Assembly: GCF_000012805.1 (NCBI RefSeq)
Contig: NC_007484.1
Span: 450,001-482,000, forward strand
Source: Nitrosococcus oceani ATCC 19707
GTDB taxonomy: Bacteria; Pseudomonadota; Gammaproteobacteria; Nitrosococcales; Nitrosococcaceae
Direction of reading: 5' to 3'
Length of the DNA: 32,000 bases
A model generated the notes under the pieces. That model had not been told where the DNA came from, searched no databases, and saw nothing but the letters and a program-made list of their open reading frames with translations. Below are positions 1 to 25,922 of the stretch, one piece after another; the first letter of the stretch is position 1, and every line of letters begins with the position of its first letter. A program made the translations under genes and the position numbers.

Positions 1-14
1 CTAGTGGAGGTGGG

Positions 15-1019
15 ATGACTGGAGTCCGGATTGATGATGCCCTTGCCGATTGGGGAAATTTGGCTAAGGAGAATTGGCAGTCTCTGCTGCTTGGTAATGG
101 ATTCAGTATTAACGTATGGAGTGGTTTCAACTACGACAGCCTTCTTCAGGTTGCACGACAAGATGACCTTGAGCATCAGCTAAACGAAGAATCCGTGACT
201 CTATTTGATCATGTCGGAAGTTCAAATTTCGAGGACGTCTTGCGAATACTTTTCCACGCCAGGATGGTTGACGAGCAACTCGGGAGACCTCAAGGGGATG
301 AAATTGAAGCGATTTATCAGAACACGAAACGTGCTTTGGCAGATGCCGTCAATTACTCTCATGTCGCATACGGTCAGTTCAACGCTGCGGCGATAAACGA
401 ACAGTTGGGTGGCTACGATGATGTGTTCACGACCAACTACGACTTGATCCCATATTGGTCAATAATGCACGAAGGTGTGGATCGGTTTCGGGACTTTTTT
501 TGGGGTGCTGACGGGGTTTTTGAGTTATGCAACACTGAGGTATTCCCTAGGCGTACAAAGATTCATTACCTCCATGGGGCCATTCACTTAGTTGAACTTC
601 CGGATGGTCGCACGAAGAAGCTGGCGACAAATCAAAACGGCAATTTGCTCGAATTGTTTGATCTTAATGCGAGGGATCAATTCCCTCTCTTTATTTCTGA
701 GGGACATTGGCAACAGAAATTGTCTCGAATATGTAAAAATGACTATCTACGGTTCTGCTTTTCGAATCTGAGCGGTCTAGAAGGTAATGCTGTAATTATT
801 GGGCACTCCCTGCATCGCGACTACGATCAACATATCATCGATGCGATTTCTCAAAGCTCAGTGGACAGATTGGCTATTGGTGTTTGGCCGCACCAGCGCG
901 CTGAGGTCATCCTGGATTTCAAGGCTCGAATCATAGAGCAGTTGCATCAGAAGTCATTGGACTTTTTCGATTCTGAATCTCACCCCCTGGGATCTGAGGT
1001 TTTACGTGTCGAGAAATAA
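15..1019 (+). CDS. SIR2-like NADase-fold protein (DUF4917-type), single-gene cassette
   Basis: 334-aa ORF. Motifs LLLGNGFS (aa 24-31), FTTNYD (aa 138-143) and YLHG (aa 185-188) correspond to the glycine loop, catalytic Asn and catalytic His of SIR2-like enzymes. Size and motifs fit my recollection of Pfam DUF4917. The TAA stop lies inside the attC R'' box. Confidence 0.7.
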   Translation: MTGVRIDDALADWGNLAKENWQSLLLGNGFSINVWSGFNYDSLLQVARQDDLEHQLNEESVTLFDHVGSSNFEDVLRILFHARMVDEQLGRPQGDEIEAIYQNTKRALADAVNYSHVAYGQFNAAAINEQLGGYDDVFTTNYDLIPYWSIMHEGVDRFRDFFWGADGVFELCNTEVFPRRTKIHYLHGAIHLVELPDGRTKKLATNQNGNLLELFDLNARDQFPLFISEGHWQQKLSRICKNDYLRFCFSNLSGLEGNAVIIGHSLHRDYDQHIIDAISQSSVDRLAIGVWPHQRAEVILDFKARIIEQLHQKSLDFFDSESHPLGSEVLRVEK

Positions 1020-1061
1020 CAAATCGTTGCAGCGGACAAGCCGCTGAATGCGGCGTTAGAG
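1014..1061 (+). other. attC recombination site (short)
   Basis: R'' AATAAC (1015-1020), L''-like GTTGCAG, central stem CAGCGG/CCGCTG, R' GTTAGAG (1055-1061). The following TTAGAG complements the CTCTAA of the next attC. Confidence 0.6.
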
Positions 1062-1069
1062 AAGTGAAT

Positions 1070-1612
1070 ATGTCACAAGCAAAGAGCTCGTTTGAGCATG
1101 GAATAAAAGACGCAGAAGAGCTGCTTGCTCATTTCGATGCGATCAACTGCAATCCGCCTCCAGCAAATGCTGAGGTGCTAAAGCGAGCTGGTTTGGTCAT
1201 GGCTCTGACAGCGTGGGAAACATACGTTGAAGACCGTATCACAGAGGCCATGGATAAACGTCTCAATGTCGTCTCGGGTAGCTACGTTGGGGAGTTTATA
1301 CAGAAAAAACTCCAACAAGAGCTGAAGCAGTTCCATAACCCAACCTCAGACAAGACCAAAAAGATCTTTCAGGATTATCTTGGATTAGACGTTACTTCAG
1401 CATGGTTTTGGGCGAACGTAACCCCGGAAAAGGCTCGAAAATCCCTAAATCAGTGGATTTCAAAGCGCGGAGACGCCGTTCATCGTTCGAAGCCAATCAA
1501 TAATGGATCGTCGGCCGCCCATTTGATTAAGAAAGATGAGTTGGAGAAGGTAATCAGATTCCTACGGGAGTTGGTTCGTGCAACGGATGATTATCTTGAG
1601 CAAAATCTCTAA
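1070..1612 (+). CDS. HEPN-domain protein (predicted RNase), single-gene cassette
   Basis: ORF with ATG at 1070 (GTG at 1064 is an alternative start). C-terminal RGDAVH is an R-x4-H HEPN motif (R135/H140 in the 182-aa numbering). The TAA stop lies inside R'' CTCTAAC. Confidence 0.65.
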   Translation: MSQAKSSFEHGIKDAEELLAHFDAINCNPPPANAEVLKRAGLVMALTAWETYVEDRITEAMDKRLNVVSGSYVGEFIQKKLQQELKQFHNPTSDKTKKIFQDYLGLDVTSAWFWANVTPEKARKSLNQWISKRGDAVHRSKPINNGSSAAHLIKKDELEKVIRFLRELVRATDDYLEQNL

Positions 1613-1684
1613 CAATTCGCATCAGTACGCTGTCTTCGGACGCCAGACGTCCCTGACGGGCCGCCGCTGTGCTCCGCGTTATAT
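1607..1684 (+). other. attC recombination site
   Basis: R'' CTCTAAC (1607-1613), central stem GGACG/CGTCC, R' GTTATAT (1678-1684). Confidence 0.6.
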
Positions 1685-1695
1685 ATGATAGAACC

Positions 1696-2286
1696 ATGAA
1701 AGCTTTGTCTATCGAAGAAATTGAGTCGGCTCGTGCAAAGCTGTTGAGTAACGCAGAGAGTCTATTTGCGGAATCTCAGCTCTTATATAAACACGGTTTC
1801 TTTCCACGAGCCTACTGTTTGGCGCATTTGTGTTGCGAGGAATTAGCAAAAATACCAATGTTGGTTGGTGCGGGCTTGGATCTTGTTAACGGCGAAGAAG
1901 TTGACTGGGAAAAGCTGCATCACCGCTTGAAGAGGCACCAGGATAAGATCAACGCAATGCACGTTCATGATTATTTTCAAAGCGAAATTAGAGCTGATGA
2001 CTCTGATGTCAGGGAACATGAGGCTGCATTAAAAACCACGCCTCACCTCAACGACATGAAAAATAACAGCCTTTACGCTGGTTTGGTTGATAGTGTCTTT
2101 AGAGAACCTAGAGAGGTCGTTACTCAAGACGACGCAATAAAGCTTATGAACATCACCCATGAACGGTTGAAATATATCCAGGCTGTTGAACAGGTTTCTT
2201 TGGGGAAAATATCTACCTCGAAAACAGGAGCCAAGATGAGGCGATTTTTGAAAGAATATAACAAGTTACGGAAGGCAGACGCGTGA
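1696..2286 (+). CDS. AbiV-like (HEPN-type) abortive-infection family protein, single-gene cassette
   Basis: ATG at 1696 is preferred; the track start at 1669 is non-ATG and lies inside the attC. The N-terminal segment NAESLFAESQLLYKHGFFPRAYCLAHLCCEELAKIPML resembles AbiV-family proteins. Its ~196 aa is similar in size to lactococcal AbiV. Confidence 0.6.
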   Translation: MKALSIEEIESARAKLLSNAESLFAESQLLYKHGFFPRAYCLAHLCCEELAKIPMLVGAGLDLVNGEEVDWEKLHHRLKRHQDKINAMHVHDYFQSEIRADDSDVREHEAALKTTPHLNDMKNNSLYAGLVDSVFREPREVVTQDDAIKLMNITHERLKYIQAVEQVSLGKISTSKTGAKMRRFLKEYNKLRKADA

Positions 2287-2287
2287 G

Positions 2288-2393
2288 ACGCACCGCTACG
2301 CGTCGCGAACAACCGTTCGACTGGCAGAACCTCCTGCATAATCAGACGCCGTACGCCTATGTATGCAGGAGAACCCGCCCGTCAACTCCCCGA
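2288..2393 (+). repeat. attC subfamily copy A
   Basis: R'' CGCGAAC (2304-2310), spacer AACC, L'' GTTCGAC, 9-bp stem CTCCTGCAT/ATGCAGGAG, L' CGTCAAC, spacer TCCCCG, then A|TTATGTG. Alignable with 2929-3043 and 6962-7076. Confidence 0.55.
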
Positions 2394-2412
2394 TTATGTG
2401 CTAGGAGAAAAA

Positions 2413-2760
2413 ATGAGTTTCATTAATACAGAAGTTATCCGAGGCATTACTGGTGTATCTGAGGAAGATCAGGCATCGATAAAGTCATTTTTGCAAGGTG
2501 CTGTCTACTGTTGGTGTAAAAATCGTAAGGATGAGTGGTTCTCTCTTCGAGATCTAATGGGCGGTGAAAATTTCTATTGGCAAGGAACTCCATTAATTTC
2601 TTTGTACGAAAAACACGAAGCTAAAGGTAGTGAGGATCCTGTAAAAGATGCAGGCAAAGATGCTGGGTGGTTACTTAAAGCTGTAATTGGTTCAGATCTA
2701 AGGCAGTTTGATACTAAAAAAGAAGACCTTATTCGTAAGTATCGTTGGGCTGGTGAGTAA
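2413..2760 (+). CDS. hypothetical protein (cassette-borne, 115 aa)
   Basis: ATG at 2413 is preceded by AGGAG; the upstream part of track ORF 2359 lies in the attC repeat. No recognisable motif. The cassette ends are supported by TTATGTG / CACATAA complementarity. Confidence 0.55.
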   Translation: MSFINTEVIRGITGVSEEDQASIKSFLQGAVYCWCKNRKDEWFSLRDLMGGENFYWQGTPLISLYEKHEAKGSEDPVKDAGKDAGWLLKAVIGSDLRQFDTKKEDLIRKYRWAGE

Positions 2761-2762
2761 CG

Positions 2763-2851
2763 CACATAACAAAGCATTTAAGAGTGATTCTCAACGCTTA
2801 GCACCTTTCATTCCATCGTTGAGTTTCGTGTTTAAGGCGCAATGGTTAAGG
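2763..2851 (+). other. attC recombination site
   Basis: R'' CACATAAC (2763-2770), central stem CTCAACG/CGTTGAG with near-symmetric arms, R' GTTAAGG (2845-2851). Confidence 0.5.
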
Positions 2852-2923
2852 TGTGGTGGCGGCGTTGCTCACACCTTAATGCGGCGTTCGCGCCGCTGCG
2901 CGGCGCGGATCGGGGAGTTGATT
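2846..2923 (+). other. ORF-less mini-cassette consisting essentially of an attC
   Basis: It starts with TTAAGGTGTG (2846-2855), whose exact reverse complement CACACCTTAA is at 2870-2879 (R''-like but ending AAT, not AAC). Then spacer GCGGC, L'' GTTCGCG, 7-bp stem GCGCCGC/GCGGCGC, spacer CGGGGA and R' GTTGATT (2917-2923). Confidence 0.4.
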
Positions 2924-2928
2924 ACGCT

Positions 2929-3043
2929 AAACGGCTGCCCGCGCTGCTACGCGTCGCGAACAACCGTTCGATTGGCGGAACCACCTGCATTATCAGATGC
3001 CGCACATCTATTACCCAGGAGAACCCGCCCGTCAACTCCCCGA
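2929..3043 (+). repeat. attC subfamily copy B (forms a second ORF-less unit with 2917-2928)
   Basis: Alignable with copies A and C. R'' CGCGAAC (2955-2961), L'' GTTCGAT, hairpin AGATG-N5-CATCT, L' CGTCAAC, spacer TCCCCG, then A|TTAGGTTC (3043/3044). Confidence 0.55.
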
Positions 3044-3051
3044 TTAGGTTC

Positions 3052-3477
3052 ATGAACAGAGAGGAGCGGATAGCCAGATTGAAAGAGCTACGCGTAGAAA
3101 GGCGGGAGGGTCCGCTCTTTCAATCAGCTAATGACTGTATGCAATGGATTGACAATGTTGCACCATTACTAAGGTACGACCGCAATCATTACGACAACTT
3201 TATGGGTCACGCGAAATATGTAAGGGTTACGAATCTTTCTGCTGATCTTCTCATGGCCCACCTAAATCCTATGATCGGCATCGTGAACCAAGCGATCGGG
3301 GAACTAGAGAATGATTTCGAGCCAGAACATGACGTTGAAACGAAAGTGGTGGTAACTAGTAACGATCATCAGTGGTACCAAAAACCAACGGGATTGATCG
3401 CTATAGGAGTGATTATTGTCGTGCTTGGAGCATGCGCAATCTGGATACTTAACCACTATTTCGATATTGGCCTATGA
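3052..3477 (+). CDS. hypothetical protein with C-terminal transmembrane helix (141 aa, cassette-borne)
   Basis: ATG at 3052 lies directly after the cassette junction; the upstream part of track ORF 2842 crosses attC repeats. The C-terminal LIAIGVIIVVLGACAIWIL is hydrophobic helix-like. Cassette ends are supported by TTAGGTTC / GAACCTAA. Confidence 0.55.
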   Translation: MNREERIARLKELRVERREGPLFQSANDCMQWIDNVAPLLRYDRNHYDNFMGHAKYVRVTNLSADLLMAHLNPMIGIVNQAIGELENDFEPEHDVETKVVVTSNDHQWYQKPTGLIAIGVIIVVLGACAIWILNHYFDIGL

Positions 3478-3574
3478 ACCTAACAATGCGCTGCAGCCGA
3501 CCCTTGGCCGCTCCCTCCCTTCCCTACCGCTTCGGTCAGTCGCCCTCAAGTGCGGCTGAGCTTAGACGTTAGAA
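3478..3574 (+). other. attC recombination site
   Basis: R'' ACCTAAC (3478-3484) followed by AATGCGCTGCAGCCGAC. The right arm GCGGCTGAGC...AGAC is complementary. R' GTTAGAA (3568-3574). Confidence 0.65.
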
Positions 3575-3623
3575 GCAGAACAAGCCTTGCGATCTTCGCC
3601 AAAAAGGTATAATTTCTATACCA

Positions 3624-3887
3624 ATGTACACCTTCGAATTTGATGAGCGAAAGAGCAACGGCAATCGGCGCAAACACGGCATCGATTTCGTCGAAGCCCA
3701 AGCGCTTTGGAGCGATCCCTATCTCATGGAAATCCCAGCGTTAACGTCCGATGAAGAGCGTTTTCTGGTAATCGGCAAAATCGAAGGGAAGCACTGGTCG
3801 GCGGTCATTACGCCCCGAAATGGCAACATCCGAATAATCTCGGTGCGCCGCTCACGGGTTGAAGAGGTAGCAATTTATGAAGGCTAA
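3624..3887 (+). CDS. brnT: BrnT-family toxin (DUF497)
   Basis: 87 aa. FEFDERKSNGNRRKHGIDFVEA...IRIISVRRSR is typical of BrnT. It overlaps the downstream antitoxin gene by 11 nt. Confidence 0.8.
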   Translation: MYTFEFDERKSNGNRRKHGIDFVEAQALWSDPYLMEIPALTSDEERFLVIGKIEGKHWSAVITPRNGNIRIISVRRSRVEEVAIYEG

Positions 3888-4110
3888 GAGCTTTGATGCG
3901 AAATTCGAGAAAGGCGAAGATGTCACCAAATCCTTGGATCTGTCCAAAGCGCGGAGGCCCCTTCAAGAACAGCGCAGGGTAAATGTCGATTTTCCGGCTT
4001 GGATGGTCGAATCCCTGGATCGGGAGGCAGGGCGTTTGGGTGTTACGCGGCAATCGGTAATTAAAGTTTGGTTGGCTGAGCGCCTTGAGCAAATAGCTTC
4101 TAACAAGTAG
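3877..4110 (+). CDS. brnA: BrnA-family antitoxin (RHH)
   Basis: 77 aa. RVNVDFPAWMVESLDREAGRLGVTRQSVIKVWLAERL is a BrnA-type ribbon-helix-helix C-terminus. Paired with brnT. Confidence 0.75.
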   Translation: MKAKSFDAKFEKGEDVTKSLDLSKARRPLQEQRRVNVDFPAWMVESLDREAGRLGVTRQSVIKVWLAERLEQIASNK

Positions 4111-4143
4111 TTCCAGCGGACCCCAAAGTCGCTTCAATTACTG
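4098..4143 (+). other. degenerate attC of the BrnTA cassette
   Basis: R'' TTCTAAC (4098-4104) matches the cassette start TTAGAAGC. L'' GTTCCAG follows, but the right half is poor and the only R'-like box is ATTACTG (4137-4143), with A instead of G. Confidence 0.3.
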
Positions 4144-4434
4144 GATGAAGAACTTTATTCACCATGACCAGGGTAAGAAATCCGACAAGTAAAAGCTTAT
4201 TGCATGGCTTGAGTCAGATCATGGATATGTACAAGTTGCTGAAGATTATCAAATCTTCTTGCAAATGGTTCAATTACTGAAAGAGCAAGGTTACGATACA
4301 CAACCAGCACCAACAGAAGCTGAGTTTGTTACTGCCTGCAAAAGAGGCTTGGCGAGAGAATTCAGGGCATAGATGCTGAACTATTTAACTGTTAGGTATC
4401 GCGCGGTTTGCTGCCGTAGATTGAATTTGTAAAC

Positions 4435-4638
4435 ATGGCAAGAAAAATTAGAGAGCTTGTCCAAGATCTAAAAGAAGTTGGGTTTTACGAAATTTCAGGT
4501 GGCGGTAAAGGATCGCATCGCAAATTTACGCATACCAAGTATGCCGGTGCCGTGACGCTCAGCGGAAAGTCTGGTGACGACGCGAAACCTTATCAAGAAA
4601 AGCAGGTGAAACAAGCCATAGAAACGGTGAAGAAATGA
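4435..4638 (+). CDS. hicA: HicA-family toxin
   Basis: 67 aa with a GSHRKFTH motif. 4-nt overlap with the downstream hicB. Confidence 0.75.
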   Translation: MARKIRELVQDLKEVGFYEISGGGKGSHRKFTHTKYAGAVTLSGKSGDDAKPYQEKQVKQAIETVKK

Positions 4639-4856
4639 AAAAGATCGATCAGTATCATAAATGGGTTGAGTGGAGCGAAGAAGATCAAACTTATATTGGA
4701 AAATGCCCTGACTTGATTACAGGAATTCACGGAGATGATCCAGTAAGACTATACGGTGAATTATGTGAGGTTGTTGAAGATGTTATTCGTCATTTCGAAG
4801 AAGAGGGGTATGCACTTCCTAGTCCTCGCATTCGACCGATGCAGGAAGTAGGGTAA
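4635..4856 (+). CDS. hicB: HicB-family antitoxin
   Basis: 73 aa. WSEEDQTYIGKCPDLITGIHGDDP...EEEGYALPSP matches the HicB N-terminal domain pattern. Coupled to hicA. Confidence 0.7.
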   Translation: MKKIDQYHKWVEWSEEDQTYIGKCPDLITGIHGDDPVRLYGELCEVVEDVIRHFEEEGYALPSPRIRPMQEVG

Positions 4857-4905
4857 ATCTTTAAATAAACGGCAAGTGAGTAAAAGGTTGTTCCGGAGGA
4901 CAAAT

Positions 4906-4956
4906 GCCTAACCCGGCGCTCAACTCGGACGCCTCCTTCGTCGGCGCCGGTTAGCT
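4906..4956 (+). other. attC recombination site
   Basis: R'' GCCTAAC (4906-4912), CCGGCGC pairing with GGCGCCGG, R' GTTAGCT (4950-4956). The cassette start TTAGGTAT at 4392 complements R'' at 7 of 9 positions. Confidence 0.65.
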
Positions 4957-4993
4957 TGGTCGTTATGCAATCAACCAGAAAGGAGTACATCCC

Positions 4994-5455
4994 ATGAAAA
5001 AAGCAATATTGGCTATAGTTGCAAGCATTTTTATCTCTGGCATTGTTCAAGCAGAGGAATATCTGCATGGCCAGTCTGGAACTTCTTATCGAAATATCGG
5101 GGGTACAACCTATGGCTCAGATGGAACGAGCTATAGAGGCATCGGCAACACCATCTACGGCTCTGATGGCAGTTCATCCAGGAGAATTGGCAATAGCACA
5201 TATAACTCCGATGGTTCGTCCTCAAGGCAAATCGGGAACACTCTGTATAATTCAGACGGTAGCACTGTACGCCGCAGTGCGCAGCTACGTCGAGTTTTAC
5301 AACCGCTACCGCCTTCACTCGCCTTTGGGGTATCGTTCACCCATGGAGTTCGAAGTCGATCAATCCACCACAATGGTGTCCACTTTTGCGTAGGAACTTT
5401 CCAGCAAAAAGCAGAGCGACGAGGAACGGGGAACGGCGCTTTTTGCTGCCGGTGA
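4994..5455 (+). pseudogene. signal-peptide repeat protein, 3' end replaced by an IS remnant
   Basis: N-terminal signal peptide MKKAILAIVASIFISGIVQA, then about five ~17-aa repeats (G.T.YGSDG.S.R.IGN). The repeat pattern breaks at ~5266, where another frame starts to encode a transposase C-terminus. Confidence 0.55.
5267..5455 (+). mobile_element. IS3-family transposase 3' remnant
   Basis: The frame ending at 5393 reads VRSYVEFYNRYRLHSPLGYRSPMEFE, the conserved end of IS3-family OrfB (rve) transposases. No upstream transposase sequence is present. An 11-bp inverted repeat AGCAAAAAGC...GCTTTTTGCT follows. Confidence 0.6.
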
Positions 5456-5464
5456 TGCGTGGCG

Positions 5465-5866
5465 TTATGTTTTTGGTTGAAACTGCTCCAGATTTAAATA
5501 GTCCGCGAAAGGGGCAAAGTCTTTGTCAGAAAATAGCAGCTGAAATCTGTTCTCAATGCAAAATGTAGCAATTATAAGGTCGGCAGTTTTCCTGATGGTA
5601 ATTCCCTTTTTTCTCAGAAATCGATAATTATCGGCACACTTGTCAACCATATGGTGACCAAATAACTCGTACTGGTCGAGTGTGGTCAGAGTGCGCTTTG
5701 CTTTTTTATATTCGCTATCTTCGCGAAACCCCTGGAGTATCTCCAAAAGAATTAGATCCCCCATGGCAATGGTCCCTTCATCCAGCGCAAAATCAAGGAG
5801 ATCAGTTTTTTCGTTTACTGCACCGTTGAAGTAATCTATCCAAACACCGGTATCGGCAAGAATCAC
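5465..5866 (-). CDS. vapC: VapC-family PIN-domain toxin
   Basis: 133 aa. The N-terminal ILADTGVWIDYF and the rest fit a PIN-domain pattern. 4-nt overlap with the upstream antitoxin. Confidence 0.8.
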   Translation of the reverse strand: MILADTGVWIDYFNGAVNEKTDLLDFALDEGTIAMGDLILLEILQGFREDSEYKKAKRTLTTLDQYELFGHHMVDKCADNYRFLRKKGITIRKTADLIIATFCIENRFQLLFSDKDFAPFADYLNLEQFQPKT

Positions 5867-6057
5867 TTGCCGCCTCTCAGCTCTTCTAAATCACCTTCCC
5901 AATGCAATTTACCCCGCAGCTTACGGATAGCCTGTTGCTTATTCCGCTTAACCAGTAGTTTGAGACCTTCTTCCACGGCTTCCTTTTTGGTTCTTAAACC
6001 GGTAGCTTTTAAAGCCTCTGCCATCAATTTATCGTCAATTACAATATTTGTTCTCAT
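5863..6057 (-). CDS. vapB: VapB-family antitoxin
   Basis: Start at MRTNIVIDDKLMAEALKATGL (internal ATG of track ORF 5863..6141), typical of short VapB antitoxins. Coupled to vapC. Confidence 0.7.
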   Translation of the reverse strand: MRTNIVIDDKLMAEALKATGLRTKKEAVEEGLKLLVKRNKQQAIRKLRGKLHWEGDLEELRGGK

Positions 6058-6172
6058 GGGAGTATGTGTATAATTAGTTAATAAATACACATTATACAGT
6101 GAAGCAAAAATAAATCCACAACATACCGCAGCCGGGCTCATTCATCCACGGGTAAACCCGTGGTGTTCTGTC

Positions 6173-6445
6173 TTGCGACCGCATATTAGATCAGCCAGAA
6201 ACAAATTCGCTCATTTCTGCTGGTCACGGAGTAATGACGATGAAATCTTCGGCACAAACTTCTCCGGAGGCATCCCTGAAGGGAATAAGCATAGAAGGGG
6301 CTTTGTTTCCTACACTGTAGCTGAGCTTGCTGAGTTCCATCATAAAGCATACGAAATTTTTGATGTATTATCAGAGTTAATCCAATGCTTCTGGTCGTTA
6401 GACCTTGTATCTAGAGGGCGTAACCTACAAGGTTGCATACCGTAA
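6173..6445 (+). pseudogene. 5'-truncated HEPN-like gene fragment
   Basis: The open frame has no ATG (the track start is TTG). It contains RNKFAH (an RN-x3-H HEPN-type motif) near its beginning, so the N-terminal half of a domain is missing. Confidence 0.4.
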
Positions 6446-6466
6446 CCTCAGCGGTTACAATTCTTA

Positions 6467-6638
6467 ATGATTAGGAGTTTTGCTCACAAAGGCATGGAAC
6501 GGTTTTACCAAGCTAGTGGCAAGTCGGGCACTCAGGCGAAACATGCTACGCGACTGCGGCTAATCCTCTCTAACCTGGATGACGTTTCGCTTTGTGGGCC
6601 GTGATGCAGAAACTGTGAATTACGAAGATTACCACTGA
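6467..6638 (+). pseudogene. higB: higB toxin gene with internal deletion and frameshift
   Basis: MIRSFAHKGMERFYQASGKSGTQAKHATRLRLILSNLDD aligns with the N-terminus of the intact HigB at 25644-25922. FRFVGRDAETVNYEDYH* in another frame aligns with its C-terminus. The middle ~35 aa are missing. Confidence 0.7.
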
Positions 6639-6650
6639 CGAGGTTGGCTC

Positions 6651-6919
6651 ATGAATATGCATAATCCCGCTCATCCAGGCGAGTGGGGCTATCGGTCACT
6701 GAGGCTGCCCGTCATTTGGGCATAAGCCGAAAGACCCTTTCCAAGGTACTCAACGGTCGTGGTGTAATTACGCCGGAGATGGCGTTGCGGCTTGAAATGG
6801 CATTCGGCAAGCCGAATGCAGCACACTGGCTCAGGCTGCAAAACGCCTATGATCTCTGGCAAACCCGTCAGCATTGCGCCGATATGCACGTTACGCCTGT
6901 GAAAACCCATGTTGCTTAA
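6651..6919 (+). pseudogene. higA: higA antitoxin gene with 5' internal deletion and frameshift
   Basis: ATG at 6651 gives [11 protein letters not shown] (compare MAMHNPPHPGE at 25644), then runs out of frame. The HTH body [23 protein letters not shown]...PEMALRLE continues in the frame of track ORF 6683..6919, which has a GTG start. Confidence 0.6.
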
Positions 6920-6961
6920 TGCTTATGTTTGGCCTAACTCGGCGCTCCAGCCAACGGCGCC

Positions 6962-7076
6962 AAACGGCTGCCCGCGCCGCTCCGCGTCGCAAACAATCGT
7001 TCGACTGGCAGAACCTCCTGCATCATCAGATGCCGTACATCTATTACCCAGGATAACCTGCCGGTCAACTCCCCGA
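6962..7076 (+). repeat. attC subfamily copy C (preceded by an attC left half GCCTAAC at 6932-6938)
   Basis: Alignable with copies A and B from AAACGGCTGCCC. R'' CGCAAAC (6988-6994), L'' GTTCGAC (6999-7005), hairpin AGATG-N5-CATCT, L' GGTCAAC, spacer TCCCCG, then A|TTGTGCCC (7076/7077). Confidence 0.55.
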
Positions 7077-7147
7077 TTGTGCCCTTCACTAAGAGTTTTT
7101 CAATAGTAACGTTTGGCGTTATTGTCTCGTTGCGTTATTATTGAGTC

Positions 7148-7426
7148 ATGATCCTATCGTTCAAGTGTAAGGATACCGAAAAGCTGGCGAACGGTCGTCG
7201 TATCAGGCGCTTTGTCAACTTTGAGCGTGTTGCGTTGAGGAAGATCAGGCAACTCCAGGCTGCCAGTCAGCTTGATGATCTTAAAGTACCGCCCGGCAAT
7301 ATGTTGGAAGCGTTGTCTGGTGACCGCCAGGGTCAGCACAGCATTCGAATCAACAGGCGGTTCCGGGTTTGCTTTCGTTGGGCGAAGGCCGGTGCGGAAG
7401 ATGTCGAAATTATTGATTACCATTAG
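7148..7426 (+). CDS. higB: HigB-type (RelE/ParE superfamily) toxin
   Basis: 92 aa. MILSFKCKDTEKL...VPPGNMLEALSGDRQGQHSIRINRRFRVCFRW...VEIIDYH is the classic HigB/plasmid-killer pattern. Confidence 0.8.
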   Translation: MILSFKCKDTEKLANGRRIRRFVNFERVALRKIRQLQAASQLDDLKVPPGNMLEALSGDRQGQHSIRINRRFRVCFRWAKAGAEDVEIIDYH

Positions 7427-7439
7427 TAGGAGGTAGCTC

Positions 7440-7754
7440 ATGCGGAACATTGATGCTGTAACGCCAGGCGAGTTGCTGAAAGAAGAATTTCTGGAGCCTA
7501 TGGGGATTTCTCAATACCGCTTGGCTAAAGAAATCGGAGTGCCGGCTCAGAGGATCAGTCAGATTATTGCCGGAAAGCGTTCGATAACTGCAGACACGGA
7601 TCTCCGGCTCTGCCGTTTTTTTGGTCTTTCCAACGGTTATTGGTTGCGGGCTCAAGCAGCCTACGACACAGAGATTGCAAAGGATGCTCTTGAAGACCAG
7701 TTGAAGAATATCCGTCCTTGGGACTCTGTACCAGAAATCGGGCCTAGGGCATAA
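7440..7754 (+). CDS. higA: HigA-family antitoxin (XRE HTH)
   Basis: 104 aa. TPGELLKEEFLEPMGISQYRLAKEIGVPAQRISQIIAGKRSITADTDLRL is typical of HigA. The TAA stop lies inside R'' GGGCATAAC. Confidence 0.8.
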   Translation: MRNIDAVTPGELLKEEFLEPMGISQYRLAKEIGVPAQRISQIIAGKRSITADTDLRLCRFFGLSNGYWLRAQAAYDTEIAKDALEDQLKNIRPWDSVPEIGPRA

Positions 7755-7767
7755 CCAACGGTTGCAC
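7747..7767 (+). other. attC left half only (R''-spacer-L'')
   Basis: GGGCATAAC-CAACG-GTTGCAC. R'' complements the cassette start TTGTGCCC (7 of 8). No right half follows; a truncated toxin reading frame follows instead. Confidence 0.45.
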
Positions 7768-7958
7768 AGCGACCGGTTTTCTGCCGCTTCCTGGACGAAA
7801 TTGTCCACCCAAATACACAACATCAACGAATCTTCGTCGTAGCAGTTGAAGACTACGTCTATCTTGTCCCATACGTCGAGAATGAGGATGAACTATTTCT
7901 AAAAACAATCATTCCTAGTCGAAAATTTACAAAGATTTATCTCGGAGACGATACATGA
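7755..7958 (+). pseudogene. 5'-truncated toxin gene (partner of the downstream RHH antitoxin)
   Basis: A 67-codon open frame without a start codon, ending ...VAVEDYVYLVPYVENEDELFLKTIIPSRKFTKIYLGDDT*. Its stop overlaps the antitoxin ATG (ATGA). The ...IIPSRK.TK tail resembles the ends of BrnT-like toxins. Confidence 0.45.
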
Positions 7959-8272
7959 GTAATGCTAAATTAAGCAAAGAAGAACAGCAGCTTCTCAGAG
8001 CTGTCGAAGCCGGCGAATTTGAATCAGTCCTTACCAAAAAACGAAGGGCTGAACTAGTCAGTGCGGCAAAGAACACGGTACGCAAAGACAAACGGATAAA
8101 TATTAGAATTTCCAATAGAGATTTGAAGGCCGTTCAACTGAAAGCATCAGAAGAAGGTATTCCCTATCAAACCCTGGTATCAAGCATTATTCATAAGTAC
8201 ATATCAGGTTCGCTCAAAGACATATCCGCTAACAAGCGCATGCAGTCGGACGCGGCAAAGCCGCGCCGCTGA
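7955..8272 (+). CDS. CopG/RHH-type antitoxin (BrnA-like), now orphan
   Basis: 105 aa. SKEEQQLLRAVEAGEFESV...KDKRINIRISNRDLKAVQLKASEEGIPYQTLVSSIIHKYISG fits the CopG/BrnA antitoxin pattern. The 3' end runs into the attC. Confidence 0.65.
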   Translation: MSNAKLSKEEQQLLRAVEAGEFESVLTKKRRAELVSAAKNTVRKDKRINIRISNRDLKAVQLKASEEGIPYQTLVSSIIHKYISGSLKDISANKRMQSDAAKPRR

Positions 8273-8287
8273 TTTTTGGCGTTGAGT
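8227..8287 (+). other. attC recombination site
   Basis: R'' CGCTAAC (8227-8233), central stem GCGCGGC-AAA-GCCGCGC, R' GTTGAGT (8281-8287). Confidence 0.65.
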
Positions 8288-8317
8288 GGCAGATCGAACT
8301 CCCGTGCCTGCCGGTAG

Positions 8318-8796
8318 TTATGCGGATTCGCTCGTAAGTTGGCGCTTGATTTCGGCTTGCAATTCGTCGATCGAGAGCAAGCAGGATACAAAATAGCGGA
8401 GATTCTCGCGAGCATCGCGGATTCGCTCGTTTTGAATTTCATCGAAATCGATTTCCAACAGCGCGCAAAGCTCCCTCCCGGTGAGAGCCTGATCCTCTAT
8501 TATTTTCTTCTTGAGGCCATATACGATATGCCCACGATCCTCTTGGTTGAAGCAACAAAGGTGAACGTTTAACGTATACGGGATATGGCTCGCCAGCGCA
8601 TTTTTGCGGATTAGATACGTTCCATCGTGATCGAGGTATCCGAACGAGAAGCAATCATGTCTTCGAGTTCATGCCCGATTCGTATCGCGGTCGCCTGTAC
8701 CCGGCTCACAAGTTGAGCAAGTTCATCATTACCGACCACATACCAGTAGTTTGACTTGCCATCTGTGCGCCCGCGCGAAGAAGACATCAAGACCAT
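8318..8796 (-). pseudogene. frameshifted gene downstream of the methyltransferase (possible cognate endonuclease; function unknown)
   Basis: ATG at 8796 overlaps the MTase 3' end by 10 nt. The frame reads ...RIGHELEDMIAS and stops at 8611. A second frame, open from ~8668 to 8318, reads FGYLDHDGTYLIRKNALASHIPYTLNVHLCCFNQEDRGHIVYGLKKKIIED...IDELQAEIKRQLTSESA*. An apparent frameshift near 8640-8668 would join them into ~158 aa. Confidence 0.5.
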
Positions 8797-9503
8797 TCGA
8801 ATTCCCCTAATGCTATGTCACAGCCGAGGAACTTGCGGCCTGTTTGTTGCGCCGCCGCGAGCACCGAAAAAGAACCTGCCGCAGGATCGATCACGACATC
8901 GCCAGAGTTCGTTACGGCATCAATCAGCTTTGCTTGCAGTCCTATGGGCTTAGGATGTGCAAACGACATATCACGCTGAAACTTCTCTTGATAAACATCA
9001 GGTATGCTGTGGTTCGTCCAAACGCCTTTCGCGCGGACAGGTTTCTTTTGGGCGACAAGTAAATACTCAGCTTTGCGACGTGAACGGTACCCCATACCAA
9101 TCCGCTCCTTGTCCCAAGTAATCAGATCAACAGTTTTCATCGGCGTTCCGTCGAACCAGCTCGAAGTCCCCTCGCACAGATGAAACTTGTCAATCCAGAG
9201 GAACAAGTGCCCCGAAGGACAGAGCACTCGAGCAATTTCTGAAACAAAATCAAATATTGTCTCTTCCGGCATTTGTTTCATCTGCGCTCGCAACTGCTGG
9301 CGAGATCCTTCGTTCCCGTACTTGAGCTTATCCATCACGCCCCGATACTGGGGGTCAAAGAATGCGGCTGGCACCGAATTATCAACGAGGCGTCCAAGAA
9401 ATTTCAGGCCATCCATTTTGATTTTTCGGTCAAAAGGAATGCTTTTTTTCTCGGAGACGGATGGAAGGTCTCCAATGCCTCGCGCATGACTGTAAACGCT
9501 CAT
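8787..9503 (-). CDS. beta-class N6-adenine/N4-cytosine DNA methyltransferase
   Basis: Motif IV FFDPQY lies near the N-terminus and motif [12 protein letters not shown] near the C-terminus, the N6_N4_Mtase order. ATG at 9503 has GAGGT 5 nt upstream and is preferred over 9557. Confidence 0.8.
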
Positions 9504-9863
9504 TTCGACCTCATTTCGGGAGAAAATAGCAAGAAATATGAGACCATAGAATGCCATACATGCGGCGTCAATGCGTTTCTGCCATACTATTGTCTGTCCG
9601 GTTTTGCCGCTGATCTAGGTTTTGCCCAACCCAAGGTTGCAATGAATGTGCTTCGCCTGCCGGTGAAGCAGCGGCAAATTGAAGCGAAGGACATTCAAAA
9701 TATTGACTTAATTACCCAAAAAATCCCTGTAAAGCTTTTTAAATTCGATATCTCCAAAGCATTAGGTATAGCCGTCACTCGTATTGCTGATTCAATATTT
9801 TGCAATTGATGCCTACAACAAGGTAATCGTAGCGTTGGCTACAAAGCTTGGAAAGATAACAAA

Positions 9864-11609
9864 ATGAAAGTTAGTATGCGTATACCTAGCAAACTCCTGC
9901 TATCATTGATGGCGGTGACTCTACTCATCACGCTGGCCTTTAGCTCCACCAAGGCAGCGCCTGATACAGGGAGTAGCACCCTTTATTATGGCGGCTCGAT
10001 ACTTACCATGGAGGGGAGTGCTCCGAGCTATGCGGAGGCCCTGGTTGTTAAGGATGGCCGCATCCTTTTTGTTGGTACCAAAACGCAGGCCGAACATCTA
10101 GCAGGTGCGGCGGCAAAAAAGGTCGATCTCGACGGCAGGGCGCTGCTGCCGGGATTCATCGACGCTCATGGCCATGTGTTCAACGCTGGTTTTCAGAAAC
10201 TCGCAGCCAATTTGCTACCGCCTCCAGATGGCGGCGGCAAGGACGTAGCATCCCTCGTGGCGCTGCTCAAGGAATGGCAAGATAAAAACGCTGCTGCTAT
10301 TAAGAAATCGGGCTGGATCATTGGCTTCGGCTATGATGATTCACGACTAGCGGAAGGGCGTCATCCCACAGCAAAGGAACTGGATCAGGTATCCACCGAG
10401 TTGCCGGTGGTGATCATCCATCAATCCGGCCACTTGGCCGCGATGAACCATAAGGGACTGGAGCTGGCTGGAATCACGGCTGAAACCAATGACCCGGTTG
10501 GTGGTGTGATTCGCCGCCAGGCCGACGGCAAGACGCCAAACGGAGTGCTTGAGGAGATGGCCTCCTTCGGGCCGATTTTCAAAATCCTGGGAGCTCTCGA
10601 TTCGGAAGCTAACGAGAAAATTGCCCTGGCTGGGGTAGATGCCTACACCCAACACGGTTTCACTACGGCACAGGAAGGTCGGGCCAACAAGGCAGCGACC
10701 GAGACTTGGCGAAAACTTGCCGATGAGCGCAAACTTAAAATCGATGTCGCAGTCTATCTCGACCTCCAATCAGAAATCGAGTACATCAAGCAAGTCGGAA
10801 TCCACGAAGACTACACTCATCATTTTCGTGTGGCGGGTGTAAAGTTGAGCCTAGATGGCTCGCCGCAAGGCAAAACGGCCTGGCTCAGCAAACCCTATCT
10901 TAATCCGCCTCCCCAAAAACCGGATAGTTATACAGGATACCCGGCCATTCCGAGCGACAAGGAGAGACAGGCACTGTTTAACCTTGCCTACCAGAAGAAC
11001 TGGCAACTGCTGGTGCATTGTAACGGCGATGCAGCGGCTGAAGCGATGATTGATGCTGTAGCCGTGGCTAGCGAGAAATATGGCAAGGATGACCGTCGTA
11101 CCGTGATGATCCATGCACAGACTGTCCGCGAAAGCCAACTCGAGCGGATGAAAAAACTTGGCATCCTGCCATCGTTTTTCTCCATGCATACTTATTATTG
11201 GGGTGACTGGCATCGGGATGAGACCCTCGGCCCGGAACGAGCAGCACGTATCTCACCAACCGCCTCGGCCCTGAAGCGCGGCATGCGATTCACCGAGCAT
11301 CATGATGCGCCTGTCGCGCTGCCGAGCGCGATCATGATTCTCCACACCACCGTCAACCGGACCAGCCGCAGTGGTGAGGTAATCGGGCCGGACCAGCGCG
11401 TTAGTCCCTATCAGGCGCTGAAGTCAATCACCGACTGGGCGGCCTGGCAATATTTCGAGCAGGATAGTAAGGGCACGCTTACGAAGGGCAAGCTGGCCGA
11501 TCTCGTGATATTGGACCAAGACCCGACACAGGTTGACCCGGCAACGATCATGAACATACGTGTATTGGAAACGATCAAGGAGGGTCAGACCGTCTATAAG
11601 GCGCAGTAA
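9864..11609 (+). CDS. exported metal-dependent amidohydrolase (YtcJ-like, Amidohydro_3)
   Basis: 581 aa. It has a signal peptide, a GFIDAHGHV metal-binding motif and a family-typical length. Confidence 0.75.
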   Translation: MKVSMRIPSKLLLSLMAVTLLITLAFSSTKAAPDTGSSTLYYGGSILTMEGSAPSYAEALVVKDGRILFVGTKTQAEHLAGAAAKKVDLDGRALLPGFIDAHGHVFNAGFQKLAANLLPPPDGGGKDVASLVALLKEWQDKNAAAIKKSGWIIGFGYDDSRLAEGRHPTAKELDQVSTELPVVIIHQSGHLAAMNHKGLELAGITAETNDPVGGVIRRQADGKTPNGVLEEMASFGPIFKILGALDSEANEKIALAGVDAYTQHGFTTAQEGRANKAATETWRKLADERKLKIDVAVYLDLQSEIEYIKQVGIHEDYTHHFRVAGVKLSLDGSPQGKTAWLSKPYLNPPPQKPDSYTGYPAIPSDKERQALFNLAYQKNWQLLVHCNGDAAAEAMIDAVAVASEKYGKDDRRTVMIHAQTVRESQLERMKKLGILPSFFSMHTYYWGDWHRDETLGPERAARISPTASALKRGMRFTEHHDAPVALPSAIMILHTTVNRTSRSGEVIGPDQRVSPYQALKSITDWAAWQYFEQDSKGTLTKGKLADLVILDQDPTQVDPATIMNIRVLETIKEGQTVYKAQ

Positions 11610-11777: not shown

Positions 11778-12260
11778 CTAGCGGGAATGGAAAAGAGAAT
11801 AAAGCCGGTTCAATAAAAACCACAGGAAGAGATCGAGCAAAGTAAAGGCCAGGATAATGAGTGCTACCTCTGGCCAAGATAAGAGCATTTGGCTCCGTAA
11901 AAAGCAAAGAGGGAGAAGGGCCTCGGGAATGTGATCCAAGCCAGGCATATGAGCGCTAGAGGGCTGTCGTCCCAAGCGCCGCTTAATAAAACTGGACAGG
12001 AGATCTCCCACCATGGCCCAAAAACCTACCAGCGCGCCGGTTATGAAGGAGAAGTTGAAAAGGGGAGCGATGAATGCGGTTGCCAGGAGAGCGGCGACAA
12101 TACCCCGAATAGTTTTAGAGGCGCCAAAGAGGGGGTAGCCATCCGGGAGATGGAGATTCCCATCCAGGGGCTGGTTGAAACGGTTTTTCAGTAGCAAGGC
12201 AGTTACTACCGGGGCACCGTTAGCCACCATTAACAGTAGCAGCGGAGAAAGCAAATCCAC
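11778..12260 (-). CDS. CDP-archaeol synthase-like (CarS/DUF46) membrane protein
   Basis: 160 aa, multi-TM, with GASKTIRG and GDLLSSFIKRRLG motifs. Confidence 0.6.
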   Translation of the reverse strand: MDLLSPLLLLMVANGAPVVTALLLKNRFNQPLDGNLHLPDGYPLFGASKTIRGIVAALLATAFIAPLFNFSFITGALVGFWAMVGDLLSSFIKRRLGRQPSSAHMPGLDHIPEALLPLCFLRSQMLLSWPEVALIILAFTLLDLFLWFLLNRLYSLFHSR

Positions 12261-22855: not shown

Positions 22856-23125
22856 TTAGGTTTTATCCTTGTATACATCGCCACGCGGTCCAATATGGTC
22901 TACATAGACGACATTCTTGAGTTCATCAATCCAAAAAATGATCCGAACATTGCCTACTCGTATTCTACGATAACCTGCCCAATCACCGACCATACTCTTA
23001 ATACCTGATAATCCAAGCGGACCGTTCTTCATCTGGGCCAGTACATGTTTTATTTTGACTTGCTGATCTTGAGGCAGTTTTCTCAAATAACGAGCAGCCC
23101 GGCGATGTACCACAATTGCATACAT
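22856..23125 (-). CDS. relE: RelE/ParE-family toxin
   Basis: 89 aa. ...GDWAGYRRIRVGNVRIIFWIDELKNVVYVDHIGPRGDVY is typical of RelE/StbE. Confidence 0.75.
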   Translation of the reverse strand: MYAIVVHRRAARYLRKLPQDQQVKIKHVLAQMKNGPLGLSGIKSMVGDWAGYRRIRVGNVRIIFWIDELKNVVYVDHIGPRGDVYKDKT

Positions 23126-23127
23126 GA

Positions 23128-23325
23128 TCAGATGCTATCCAGATCTATGTAGGCGTCGCGTTTGCCGCTCTCTCTGTCTTCACGAGCCTGTCTCAAATCT
23201 TCCAGATCTTCTGAATCTAAATCTAAGCCCAAAATTTCTGCAAGTTCTTGAAATTCATCCCATGGGATGATTACCTCTTGCGGATTGCCTTGTTCGTCAA
23301 CAACTATTTTTTTATGAATGTTCAT
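23128..23325 (-). CDS. antitoxin of the RelE-type toxin (Phd/YefM- or RelB-like)
   Basis: Start at MNIHKKIVVDEQGNPQEVIIPWDEFQEL. It has an acidic C-terminus and ends 2 nt before the relE start. Confidence 0.6.
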   Translation of the reverse strand: MNIHKKIVVDEQGNPQEVIIPWDEFQELAEILGLDLDSEDLEDLRQAREDRESGKRDAYIDLDSI

Positions 23326-24961: not shown

Positions 24962-25180
24962 TTATACATCGCCACGCGGTCCAATATGGTCTATATAGAC
25001 GACATTCTTGAGTTCATCTAGATCAGTACATGTTTTGTTTTGACTTGCTGATCTTGGGACAGTTTTCTCAAATAACGAGCAGCTTGGTGATGTACGACCC
25101 TTATCTATACATGATCAGATACTATCCAGATCTATGTAGGCGTCACATTTGCCACTCTCTCAATCTATGCGTGCTGTGTA
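24962..25180 (-). pseudogene. decayed duplicate of the relE-antitoxin locus
   Basis: Nucleotide similarity to 22866-23190 is clear by eye. The relE copy lacks ~105-110 bp internally (equivalent of 22928-23038), and only the 3' end of the antitoxin gene is retained. Confidence 0.7.
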
Positions 25181-25255: not shown

Positions 25256-25356
25256 GCATAATGTCGAAGTCCGGTTGCCGCCGGAGCGGCGAAGCCTGCG
25301 GGGGGACTCAAAGCGCGGCAGCGCTTTGGGCGGTCATCTTTAGCGCTTCGTTATGC
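25256..25356. other. attC-like site flanking the HigBA unit
   Basis: GCATAAT (25256-25262) ... GTTATGC (25350-25356), with imperfectly complementary arms (GCATAA.G..GAAG… / …CTTCGTTATGC). One core reads AAT/ATT instead of AAC/GTT. Confidence 0.4.
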
Positions 25357-25644
25357 AGCGTCAAACTCGATTTTTTCGACGATATCGAGATTTACGGTAC
25401 GTTTTGCTTGCCACAAATCATAGTTATTCTGCATCGTCAACCAACTTTCGGCAGAACGGCCGAGCGTTTTGGATAAGCGGAGAGCCATTTCAGGACTAAC
25501 GCCACTACTACCCTTGAGCAGACGATTAAGCGTCGACGGCGACACGCCAAGTTTCCTGGAAAGCGTTCGGCCCGTAATATGGAAAGGTTCCATATATACC
25601 TCTCGGATGAACTCGCCGGGATGTGGGGGATTGTGCATAGCCAT
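25351..25644 (-). CDS. higA: HigA-family antitoxin (XRE HTH)
   Basis: 97 aa. MAMHNPPHPGEFIREVYMEPF…SPEMALRLSKTLGRSAESWLTMQNNYDLWQ. Confidence 0.85.
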   Translation of the reverse strand: MAMHNPPHPGEFIREVYMEPFHITGRTLSRKLGVSPSTLNRLLKGSSGVSPEMALRLSKTLGRSAESWLTMQNNYDLWQAKRTVNLDIVEKIEFDAA

Positions 25645-25922
25645 CAGTGATAATCCTCGTAATCCAGAATAAAGGCATTCCTATCGCGAAACTCGAATGT
25701 GACACGCCAATTCCCATTGACCCAAATAGACCAGCGTCCTTCATTCGAGCCTTTCAGCGAATGTAGCTTGAAACCAGGGATATCCATGTCTTCGATTGTA
25801 GTCGCAGTATCCAAAGCCACCAATTGCATTCGTAATCGTTTCGCATGCTTGGGTTGGATACCGGCTTTTGAGCCCGATTCAAAGTATCTCTGCAGCCCCT
25901 TGTGGCGAAACGATTTAATCAC
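25644..25922 (-). CDS. higB: HigB-family toxin
   Basis: 92 aa. MIKSFRHKGLQRYFESGSKAGIQPKHAKRL…WRVTFEFRDRNAFILDYEDYH. 1-nt overlap with higA. Confidence 0.85.
   Translation of the reverse strand: MIKSFRHKGLQRYFESGSKAGIQPKHAKRLRMQLVALDTATTIEDMDIPGFKLHSLKGSNEGRWSIWVNGNWRVTFEFRDRNAFILDYEDYH

Follow-up and report, generated by a model that had tools for sequence, protein, structure and literature searches.

The cassette array at the N. oceani locus

The stretch of DNA analysed here, called the window, comprises 32,000 nucleotides (nt) of the Nitrosococcus oceani ATCC 19707 chromosome (NC_007484.1, positions 450,001 to 482,000). It begins with a row of co-oriented, plus-strand gene cassettes, which include toxin-antitoxin modules, one of them (VapBC) inverted. 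The G+C content is 45-49% over the first 9 kb, where these cassettes lie, and 51-61% further on. Neither promoter-like nor terminator-like sites are enriched among the cassettes. With a probability of about 0.88, window positions 1-8281 represent most of a chromosomal integron-type gene-cassette array. The whole array spans about 10.2 kb and about 16 units. The window holds its distal ~80%, the head lies 1.7 kb before the window, and the distal end is the crossover 8281|8282, at the R' box (8281-8287) of the last attC site. No integron in N. oceani was described in the literature searched.

Positions upstream of the window are given in scaffold DS995301.1 (GCA_000155655.1; L001 below), part of which is identical to the window and in which window position 1 is L001 9987. 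The gene order in a second assembly (GCA_000740745.1) is unchanged relative to this scaffold. Positions in N. watsonii C-113 and N. wardiae are given as L015 and L095, respectively.

A first-pass annotation, made from the window alone, had proposed that the first ~8.3 kb are an integron cassette array with co-oriented plus-strand cassettes, partly inverted toxin-antitoxin modules, a distal end between 8287 and 9863 and no integrase in the window. Each of these proposals was borne out: the array by an attC covariance model, by the circular-cassette rule and by further attC sites upstream; the orientation by the model matches, all six of which are on the plus strand; the inversion by VapBC; the distal end by the R' box of the last attC; and the lack of an integrase by tblastn with IntI1. 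None of the outcomes that the annotation had named as speaking against an array occurred, since the model gave significant matches at the places it had listed, complementarity between cassette starts and R'' boxes was far above that of permuted pairs, and more attC sites lie upstream of position 1.

Identification of attC sites

An attC site is active as a folded single strand in which the R box is AAC/GTT, the spacers stay unpaired and the L box has a base that is extrahelical. The integron integrase cuts attC at G|TT, and cassettes are excised as circles and reinserted. The covariance model used here, R1, was built from seven class-1 plasmid attC sites only, those of aac(6')-29a, blaVIM-2, arr-3, aac(6')-Ib4, aadB, aadA2 and dfrA5, with the R box, the spacers and the bulged L box annotated. 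The class-1 integron plasmids came from Pseudomonas, Acinetobacter, Enterobacter and Klebsiella, and R1 was searched with filters off. Six sites were matched in the window and two more upstream of it (Table 1), while 8300-32000 gave no match below E = 1. The top score in a control of 1.31 Mb of unrelated proteobacterial loci was 15.6 bits, which is exceeded by the match at 1607-1684, and a held-out class-1 attC (dfrA27) scored 25.3 bits.

All six window sites were aligned by R1 end to end or nearly so as imperfect palindromes ended by AAC and GTT. The bulge and the spacers are modelled explicitly, and the alignments give GTT(G)CAGCGG / CCGCTGAAC and like pairs. The best canonical site is that at 3478-3574, whose bottom strand (3475-3576) folds into an R box, unpaired spacers and a bulged stem. 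The boxes of the 48-nt site at 1014-1061 are R'' AAATAAC, L'' GTT(G)CAGCGG, L' CCGCTGAAT and R' GTTAGAG; those of the site at 2764-2892 are R'' ACATAAC, L'' ATT(T)AAG.GTG, L' CACCTTAAT and R' GTTCGCG; and the last site of the array has R'' CGCTAAC and R' GTTGAGT. By model match and box structure the six sites are attC, and cutting of their folded bottom strand by IntI is predicted. The strict RYYYAAC...GTTRRRY cores of the first-pass annotation are rarely found, but the AAC/GTT ends and the structure are kept. At 2393|2394, 3043|3044 and 7076|7077 the crossover is preceded by ...CTCCCCGA, and the core is A|TT rather than the G|TT of the annotation.

The architecture is that of the class-1 attC of blaVIM-2, in which GTT(G)CAGCCG / CGGCTGAAC corresponds to GTT(G)CAGCGG / CCGCTGAAC here; spacers of 5-6 nt and the G|TT crossover are likewise shared. 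The array differs from class-1 mobile integrons in that its cassettes are other ones, it is chromosomal and it is without resistance genes.

Cassette starts and R'' boxes

When cassettes excise and insert as circles at G|TT, the start of a cassette is expected to pair with its own R''. In 14 cassettes, two of N. watsonii and 12 of N. oceani (the latter including eight in the window), we compared the ten bases after each crossover with the ten before the C of each R'', leaving out the invariant TT/AA. The match to the cassette's own R'' was 6.07 of 8 variable positions, as against 2.93 of 8 to the R'' of other cassettes. None of 200,000 permutations reached the observed sum of 85 (permuted 44 +/- 5.3, maximum 71). 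Every intact cassette starts with the reverse complement of its own R''. Complementarity that is specific to the cassette is thus the footprint of excision and insertion as circles. The seven start/R'' pairs noted in the first-pass annotation were all found where expected (Table 1). One of them, TTAAGGTGTG (2846) / CACACCTTAA (2870), is present but marks no separate cassette: a 41-nt 'TTAAGGTGTG' mini-cassette was rejected because in the R1 alignment the pair is an internal alternative arm of one 129-nt attC (2764-2892).

These results leave very little room for the intergenic palindromes being generic repeated extragenic palindromes (REPs), terminators or miniature inverted-repeat transposable elements (MITEs) between small genes, an explanation that we consider hardly credible. 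It is true that the sites are GC-rich imperfect palindromes between open reading frames (ORFs), that they seldom satisfy the strict RYYYAAC/GTTRRRY strings and that no integrase lies near the array. However, a model trained on unrelated class-1 sites known from experiment finds them in one orientation and inside the array only, and their L boxes have the characteristic single bulge, as in the blaVIM-2 attC (GTTGCAGCCG...CGGCTGAAC there, GTTGCAGCGG...CCGCTGAAC here). Terminators or REPs would not yield start/R'' complementarity specific to each cassette, and terminator-like sites are not enriched.

Cassettes and their genes

The units of the array are listed in Table 1. The proteins encoded by cassettes 1 to 3 (DUF4917/PDC-S21, RiboL-PSP HEPN and AbiV) probably act in phage defence, and the toxin-antitoxin modules probably stabilise the array. 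Many sites are decayed, which suggests that the array is largely fossilising.

Table 1. Units, recombination sites and element E copies of the array. Positions are those of the window unless marked L001 or L015; start/R'' gives matching bases of ten and, where listed, the pair with its positions.
Feature	Position	Strand	Content	Start/R''	Crossover	R1 score
Upstream attC	L001 9074-9148					22.8 bits
Upstream attC	L001 9726-9821					33.7 bits
Element E, full copies outside the window	L001 8288-8445, 9816-9973; L015 10510-10665, 18970-19127
Cassette 1	1-1055	+	begins 13 nt before the window at ...CTCCCCGA|TTATGTC; DUF4917 protein, ORF 15-1019 (Pfam E 4.6e-46; PADLOC candidate defence family PDC-S21, E 2.4e-99)	8/10
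attC of cassette 1	1014-1061	+	48 nt		1055|1056	32.2 bits, E 1.3e-6
Cassette 2	1056-1678	+	HEPN RiboL-PSP protein, ORF 1064-1612 (Pfam E 4.2e-30)	8/10; TTAGAG 1056 / CTCTAA 1607
attC of cassette 2	1607-1684	+	78 nt		1678|1679	16.4 bits, E 0.055
Cassette 3	1679-2302	+	AbiV-type HEPN abortive-infection protein, ORF 1696-2286 (Pfam AbiV E 2.9e-37; PADLOC AbiV also); own attC weak, R'' ATATAAC at 2256-2262	6/10		4.5 bits
Left-truncated E fused to AbiV attC	2289-2393	+	ends ...CTCCCCGA		2393|2394
Cassette 4	2394-2886	+	115-amino-acid protein, ORF 2413-2760 (no match in Pfam or PADLOC)	8/10; TTATGTG 2394 / CACATAA 2763
attC of cassette 4	2764-2892	+	129 nt		2886|2887	14.8 bits, E 0.15 (2768-2888)
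Element E, full copy	2887-3043	+	157 nt, ORF-less		3043|3044
Cassette 5	3044-3568	+	141-amino-acid protein, ORF 3052-3477 (no match in Pfam or PADLOC)	10/10; TTAGGTTC 3044 / GAACCTAA 3476
attC of cassette 5	3478-3574	+	97 nt		3568|3569	44.6 bits, E 3.1e-10
Cassette 6	3569-4391	+	BrnT toxin 3624-3887 (Pfam E 1.3e-24), CopG/RHH antitoxin 3877-4110	8/10; TTAGAAGC 3569 / GCTTCTAA 4096
Split attC of cassette 6	4098-4120 + 4375-4397		~250 nt with a gene fragment between the arms		4391|4392
Cassette 7	4392-4962	+	HicA toxin 4435-4638 (Pfam E 1.8e-10), partner ORF 4635-4856	7/10; TTAGGTAT 4392 / ATGCCTAA 4904
attC of cassette 7	4906-4968	+				31.0 bits, E 3e-6
Decayed cassette	4963-5464	+	repeat-rich secreted-protein fragment; R'-like end		5464|5465
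Inverted VapBC	5465-6190	-	VapC PIN 5465-5866 (E 1.9e-7), VapB 5863-6141 (E 9e-17); attC degenerate after VapB			no match
Degraded HigB/HigA	6467-6919	+	HigB middle lost, HigA frameshifted (Pfam HigB fragment and HTH_3, six-frame translation)
attC left arm fused to left-truncated E	6932-7076	+	R'' GCCTAAC 6932-6938; E 6953-7076		7076|7077
HigBA cassette	7077-7775	+	HigB 7148-7426 (E 4.2e-13), HigA 7440-7754 (HTH_3 E 3e-10); of its attC the left half alone survives (7749-7775)	8/10; TTGTGCCC 7077 / GGGCATAA 7747
5'-truncated cassette	7776-8281	+	toxin gene fragment ~7791-7931; CopG-type antitoxin 7955-8272 (Pfam CopG_antitoxin E 5.1e-6)
Last attC	8227-8287	+			8281|8282	21.8 bits, E 1.4e-3 (8227-8288)

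The genes for the DUF4917 (PDC-S21) and RiboL-PSP HEPN proteins are in adjacent cassettes, with only the 48-nt mini attC between them. DUF4917 and RiboL-PSP HEPN domains tend towards genomic association; if this holds, the two cassettes may together make up one defence system or may be on the way to fusion. The repeat-rich secreted protein (4994-~5270) is truncated by a remnant of an IS3-family transposase (~5265-5393). The remnant is the end of an rve_2 domain, with a Pfam rve_2 E of 2.1e-5 on 5019-5393. The degraded HigB/HigA genes at 6467-6919 resemble, by eye, intact HigB/HigA genes at 25351-25922 on the minus strand, 19 kb downstream.

Element E

A short sequence, here called E, occurs in five full copies in the two species (Table 1). 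Homology among the copies starts right after the G of the preceding attC or leader and stops right before the TT of the next cassette. E has no ORF and would consist almost wholly of its own recombination site. It starts with TTCGCGCC, and 14 nt after the start it carries GGCGCGAAT, the complement of A plus TTCGCGCC; the remaining N. oceani copies have GGCGCGAAT as their R''-like box, too, and the full copy in the window has GGCGCGGAT. In the stem, ATCGGGGAGTTGA is opposite GTCAACTCCCCGAT, and the fold is very strong on both strands (z about -6). As a circle, E would form one long stem with the R box, CGGGGA/TCCCCG, GTTGAC/GTCAAC and a branched tip. The geometry is attC-like, with a 9-nt R box, a 6-nt spacer and GTTGAC / GTCAAC. 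With CGCGAAC-AACC-GTT(C)GAC, an alternative left arm further inside, the fold comes closer to a canonical one, as it has a bulge and its spacers are unpaired. The last base of E is A. Since the cassettes after E have ordinary ...AAC R'' boxes and obey the circular rule, the crossover of E is A|TT, with the A belonging to E. R1 gave no match above noise on E, and a short N. watsonii attC that shares the right arm of E scored 12.2 bits.

We read E, from its ends and its predicted fold, as a gene-less, attC-only cassette that reached several attC sites through the recombination that also moves the other cassettes, with A|TT as its core. Two truncated copies lie in the window, with identities to the full copies of 89-93% (2289-2393) and 88-91% (6953-7076). 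The truncated E that follows the Excalibur cassette in N. oceani is full length at the counterpart position in N. watsonii, and the partial copies therefore look like deletion derivatives.

Other readings of E were considered. E as a coding sequence was rejected because ORFs through different copies lie in different frames. A promoter cassette is unsupported, as the consensus scan was empty and the sole -10-like hexamer varies among copies. Neither the array nor the leader nor E matched an RNA family of Rfam, whether at gathering or at permissive thresholds. A group IIC-attC intron is a ribozyme of at least 600 nt inserted in antisense at the R'' side. E as a remnant of such an intron was rejected, since E is 157 nt long, lies at the R' crossover in sense orientation and has no Rfam match. 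E as a MITE of IS1111 type was rejected on its end structure, size and insertion point (PMC11187229).

A non-autonomous transposable element that inserts into attC, for example a MITE of an attC-targeting insertion sequence (IS) of the IS1111 family or an intron remnant, is an alternative reading of E that we regard as unlikely. In its favour are the shortness of E, its lack of an ORF, its subterminal inverted repeats and the position of its copies (five or more of them full), which is the same precise attC point throughout; elements of the IS1111 family target one end of attC sites (PMC11187229), and the class-1 attC model does not recognise E. The ends of E are, however, integrase crossover points, after G and before TT, and the cassettes behind it obey the circular rule. 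Its start TTCGCGCC complements its GGCGCGAA(T) box, as in a cassette. The inverted repeats of E lie ~22 nt and 0 nt from its ends, whereas in the IS1111 family the subterminal repeats are 11-13 bp long and the extensions beyond them measure 7 and 3 nt (PMC11187229). The group IIC-attC intron of pWLK-NDM lies at the R'' side in the opposite orientation, and no DEDD transposase is found near E. Scans for the 3' end of E gave 0 matches in metagenome_contigs and, in viral_contigs, 22 single 15-mer matches, at or below a rough chance estimate; E was found in neither. The scan of genome_contigs also gave 0 matches, but this collection is without Nitrosococcus (best metallophosphoesterase relative 64% identical), and its zero is uninformative about relatives. 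IS1111-attC elements and group IIC-attC introns resemble E in inserting at a fixed attC point; unlike E, they are 1.4-2 kb long and encode a transposase or reverse transcriptase.

As a cassette, E is closest to the gene-less cassettes (Blanco et al. 2024, PMC11014356; PMC6557892). It is cassette-sized, ORF-less and bounded by crossovers, and it always lies just upstream of a sense-oriented cassette gene. It differs in being only 157 nt long, in its A|TT core with AAT in R'' and in having no conserved sigma-70 promoter.

Array head and integrase

The head of the array is at L001 8287|8288, where the first cassette is joined exactly to a conserved leader of ~210 nt (L001 8075-8287). The leader ends in GAATAAATTG|TT (AAATTG|TT) and contains 3-4 spaced repeats TTATCAnGGCAAAnnnGCCTGAAT (TTATCAGGGCAAA..GCCTGAAT), each with internal dyad symmetry. 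It adjoins the stop-codon region of a metallophosphoesterase gene, with ~360 nt between. The same type of leader heads both arrays of N. watsonii (L015 8945-9160 and 18750-18969). The second of these arrays lies across an M48 peptidase / metallophosphoesterase gene pair, and its first cassette follows the circular rule at 9 of 10 bases. From its repeats and its junction, the leader looks like a protein-binding, attI-like platform without an adjacent integrase gene. The leader region has no consensus promoter on the plus strand; a single promoter-like site is on the minus strand, downstream of the leader.

The AAATTG of the leader end recurs elsewhere. At the far end of an inverted ParDE unit, synteny between N. 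oceani (L001 2438-2446) and N. watsonii (L015 11670-11678) breaks exactly after GG(C/T)AAATTG. The 8-mer GGCAAATT as a motif of array ends was dropped, as three occurrences in 62 kb, one of them at window 9673, were estimated to be near chance.

No integrase domain was found among the called genes within 10 kb upstream in N. oceani, and in N. watsonii the 9 kb that precede the sister array gave none either. The best hit of tblastn with IntI1 over 62 kb had an E of 0.72, and the 24 kb downstream of the array are without an integrase, too. Upstream walks to N. watsonii (via the Excalibur protein) and to N. wardiae (via the metallophosphoesterase) likewise showed no integrase. The first-pass annotation had placed intI, attI and the cassette promoter Pc upstream of position 1; the array head is indeed there, but intI was not found within 10 kb.

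Comparison between species

The flanking genes and some cassettes are common to N. oceani and N. watsonii C-113, with 92-94% nucleotide identity. Homology stops at L001 701/702, 1819/1820 and 8448/8449, all upstream of the window and 0-4 nt from predicted crossovers. Between 701/702 and 1819/1820, N. oceani has a ParA-like cassette, whereas N. watsonii has a gene for a 93-amino-acid protein; after 8448/8449, N. oceani has LprI and N. watsonii a 274-amino-acid protein. Synteny that breaks this close to crossovers indicates that cassettes were swapped after the species split. An IS with TnpB only (L001 4138-5292) lies between the N. oceani arrays and is absent at the counterpart place in N. watsonii. 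In nucleotide sequence it is unrelated to the TnpB element at window 28400-29554.

At the N. wardiae locus (L095 10001-11516), the immediate neighbour of the metallophosphoesterase gene is the CarS-like gene, which in N. oceani lies at window 11778-12260. What N. oceani has between these two genes, from the leader and the array to the restriction genes and the amidohydrolase gene, is therefore an inserted island of ~13.8 kb.

Nature of the array

Each unit consists of a promoter-poor gene or gene pair with its attC, and an integron integrase would excise such units as circles and reinsert them. As no integrase is encoded nearby, any recent shuffling would have used one that is encoded elsewhere or is now lost. 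A complete sedentary chromosomal integron, of which the array would be the distal part and whose intI, attI and Pc would lie just upstream, appears very improbable. Such an integron would agree with the plus-strand cassettes, the continuation of the array upstream of position 1, the turnover of cassettes since the split of N. oceani and N. watsonii, and a leader that ends in AAATTG|TT with 3-4 spaced repeats, as attI carries several integrase-binding sites. But the leader abuts, at a distance of only ~360 nt, a conserved metallophosphoesterase gene, no tyrosine recombinase is seen in the 10 kb upstream in N. oceani or in the 9 kb before the N. watsonii sister array, and the IntI1 search was negative. 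In addition, E has stayed first after the leader in N. oceani and N. watsonii alike, although the cassette that follows it is not the same; insertion at the leader has therefore not been the active route.

Locally the array is instead a cluster of attC sites lacking integron-integrase, or CALIN (Cury et al. 2016, PMC4889954), because it has at least two close, co-oriented attC sites and no intI within a few kb. In common with other CALINs it has at least 2 co-oriented attC sites found by a covariance model, small cassettes between them and no intI near. It differs from them in its ~210-nt attI-like leader ending in a G|TT crossover, in its sister array across two core genes and in the replacement of cassettes between sister species. 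Sedentary chromosomal integrons of the Vibrio type are similar in being chromosomal, in their many small cassettes of unknown function and duplicated cassettes, in their partly inverted toxin-antitoxin modules and in their anti-phage cassettes such as AbiV (bioRxiv 10.1101/2024.07.02.601686). In contrast with these, the N. oceani array has no adjacent intI, ~16 units rather than tens to hundreds, many decayed sites and heterogeneous attC sites of 48-129 nt rather than one homogeneous repeat family. The array is of an ordinary kind, and E and the lack of a nearby integrase are its unusual details.

Several points weigh against reading window 1-8281 as an integron-type array. Two of the six R1 matches are marginal (E 0.055 and 0.15), and the attC of the AbiV cassette, the sequence at 6932-6986, the half or split sites and E itself are unrecognised by R1. 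The inspection for an integrase covered ~10 kb upstream and 24 kb downstream, which leaves room for an intI elsewhere in the genome. E departs from the rules for a canonical attC in its A|TT core (AAT/ATT), its fully paired spacer and an outer stem that has no extrahelical base.

A more far-reaching possibility, which we consider improbable and put forward tentatively, is that Nitrosococcus carries an integron platform split from its integrase, with arrays served in trans and with E as a self-propagating element that recombines at A|TT. Two arrays would then flank a core gene pair, each headed by an orphan attI-like leader, and the AAT in the R'' of E would compensate for the A|TT core. Cassettes would have been exchanged at the 3' junction of E after the split of N. 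oceani and N. watsonii, and because of this exchange the arrays may be served by an integrase that is foreign or unlinked. E would be an attC that stands alone in nature, and where it landed next to a gene or a damaged attC (2289-2393 and 6953-7076 would be examples), it could provide a recombination end that works. If this is true, E offers a possible route to the genesis or repair of cassettes.

The array adds an ammonia-oxidising marine gammaproteobacterium to the hosts of integrase-less cassette arrays. The defence genes (PDC-S21/DUF4917, RiboL-PSP HEPN, AbiV) and toxin-antitoxin modules that it carries fit the current view that anti-phage genes are stored in chromosomal arrays. Swaps between sister species in an array without an integrase bear on the question of whether CALINs are still mobilised by an integrase acting in trans or are dead relics. 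With hardly any cargo, a core that varies to A|TT and a choice of two left arms, E could serve as a very small natural attC substrate for working out the rules of attC recognition and for testing ideas on how genes acquire their attC sites.

Genes downstream of the array

A type II restriction-modification pair (8318-9557, minus strand) lies directly after the last attC. The N6/N4 methyltransferase gene (8787-9557) is intact, and the restriction enzyme gene is frameshifted, with the N-terminal 61 amino acids at 8611-8796 and the remainder in another frame down to ~8318. The two genes were rejected as an inverted last cassette, as there is no attC and no matching R'' beyond them. The amidohydrolase gene at 9864-11609, whose product is 100% identical to an N. 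oceani protein at NCBI, is found among Nitrosococcus only in N. oceani, and its next relatives, 72-75% identical, are in other groups.

Further downstream, an alcohol dehydrogenase gene lies between duplicated segments at 22872-23174 and 24963-25161 (56 nt at 98% and ~150 nt at 87% identity), which also overlap the gene of a RelE/ParE-type toxin (22856-23125). In the type I restriction region at 26041-31911, hsdM (26041-27696) is split from hsdS (30607-31911) by an insert with a VapBC module, a TnpB-only element of the IS200/IS605 type (28400-29554) and a ParE-like toxin-antitoxin pair. On either side of this insert lies one copy of a 98-nt repeat (27550-27647 and 29868-29965; 88% identical).

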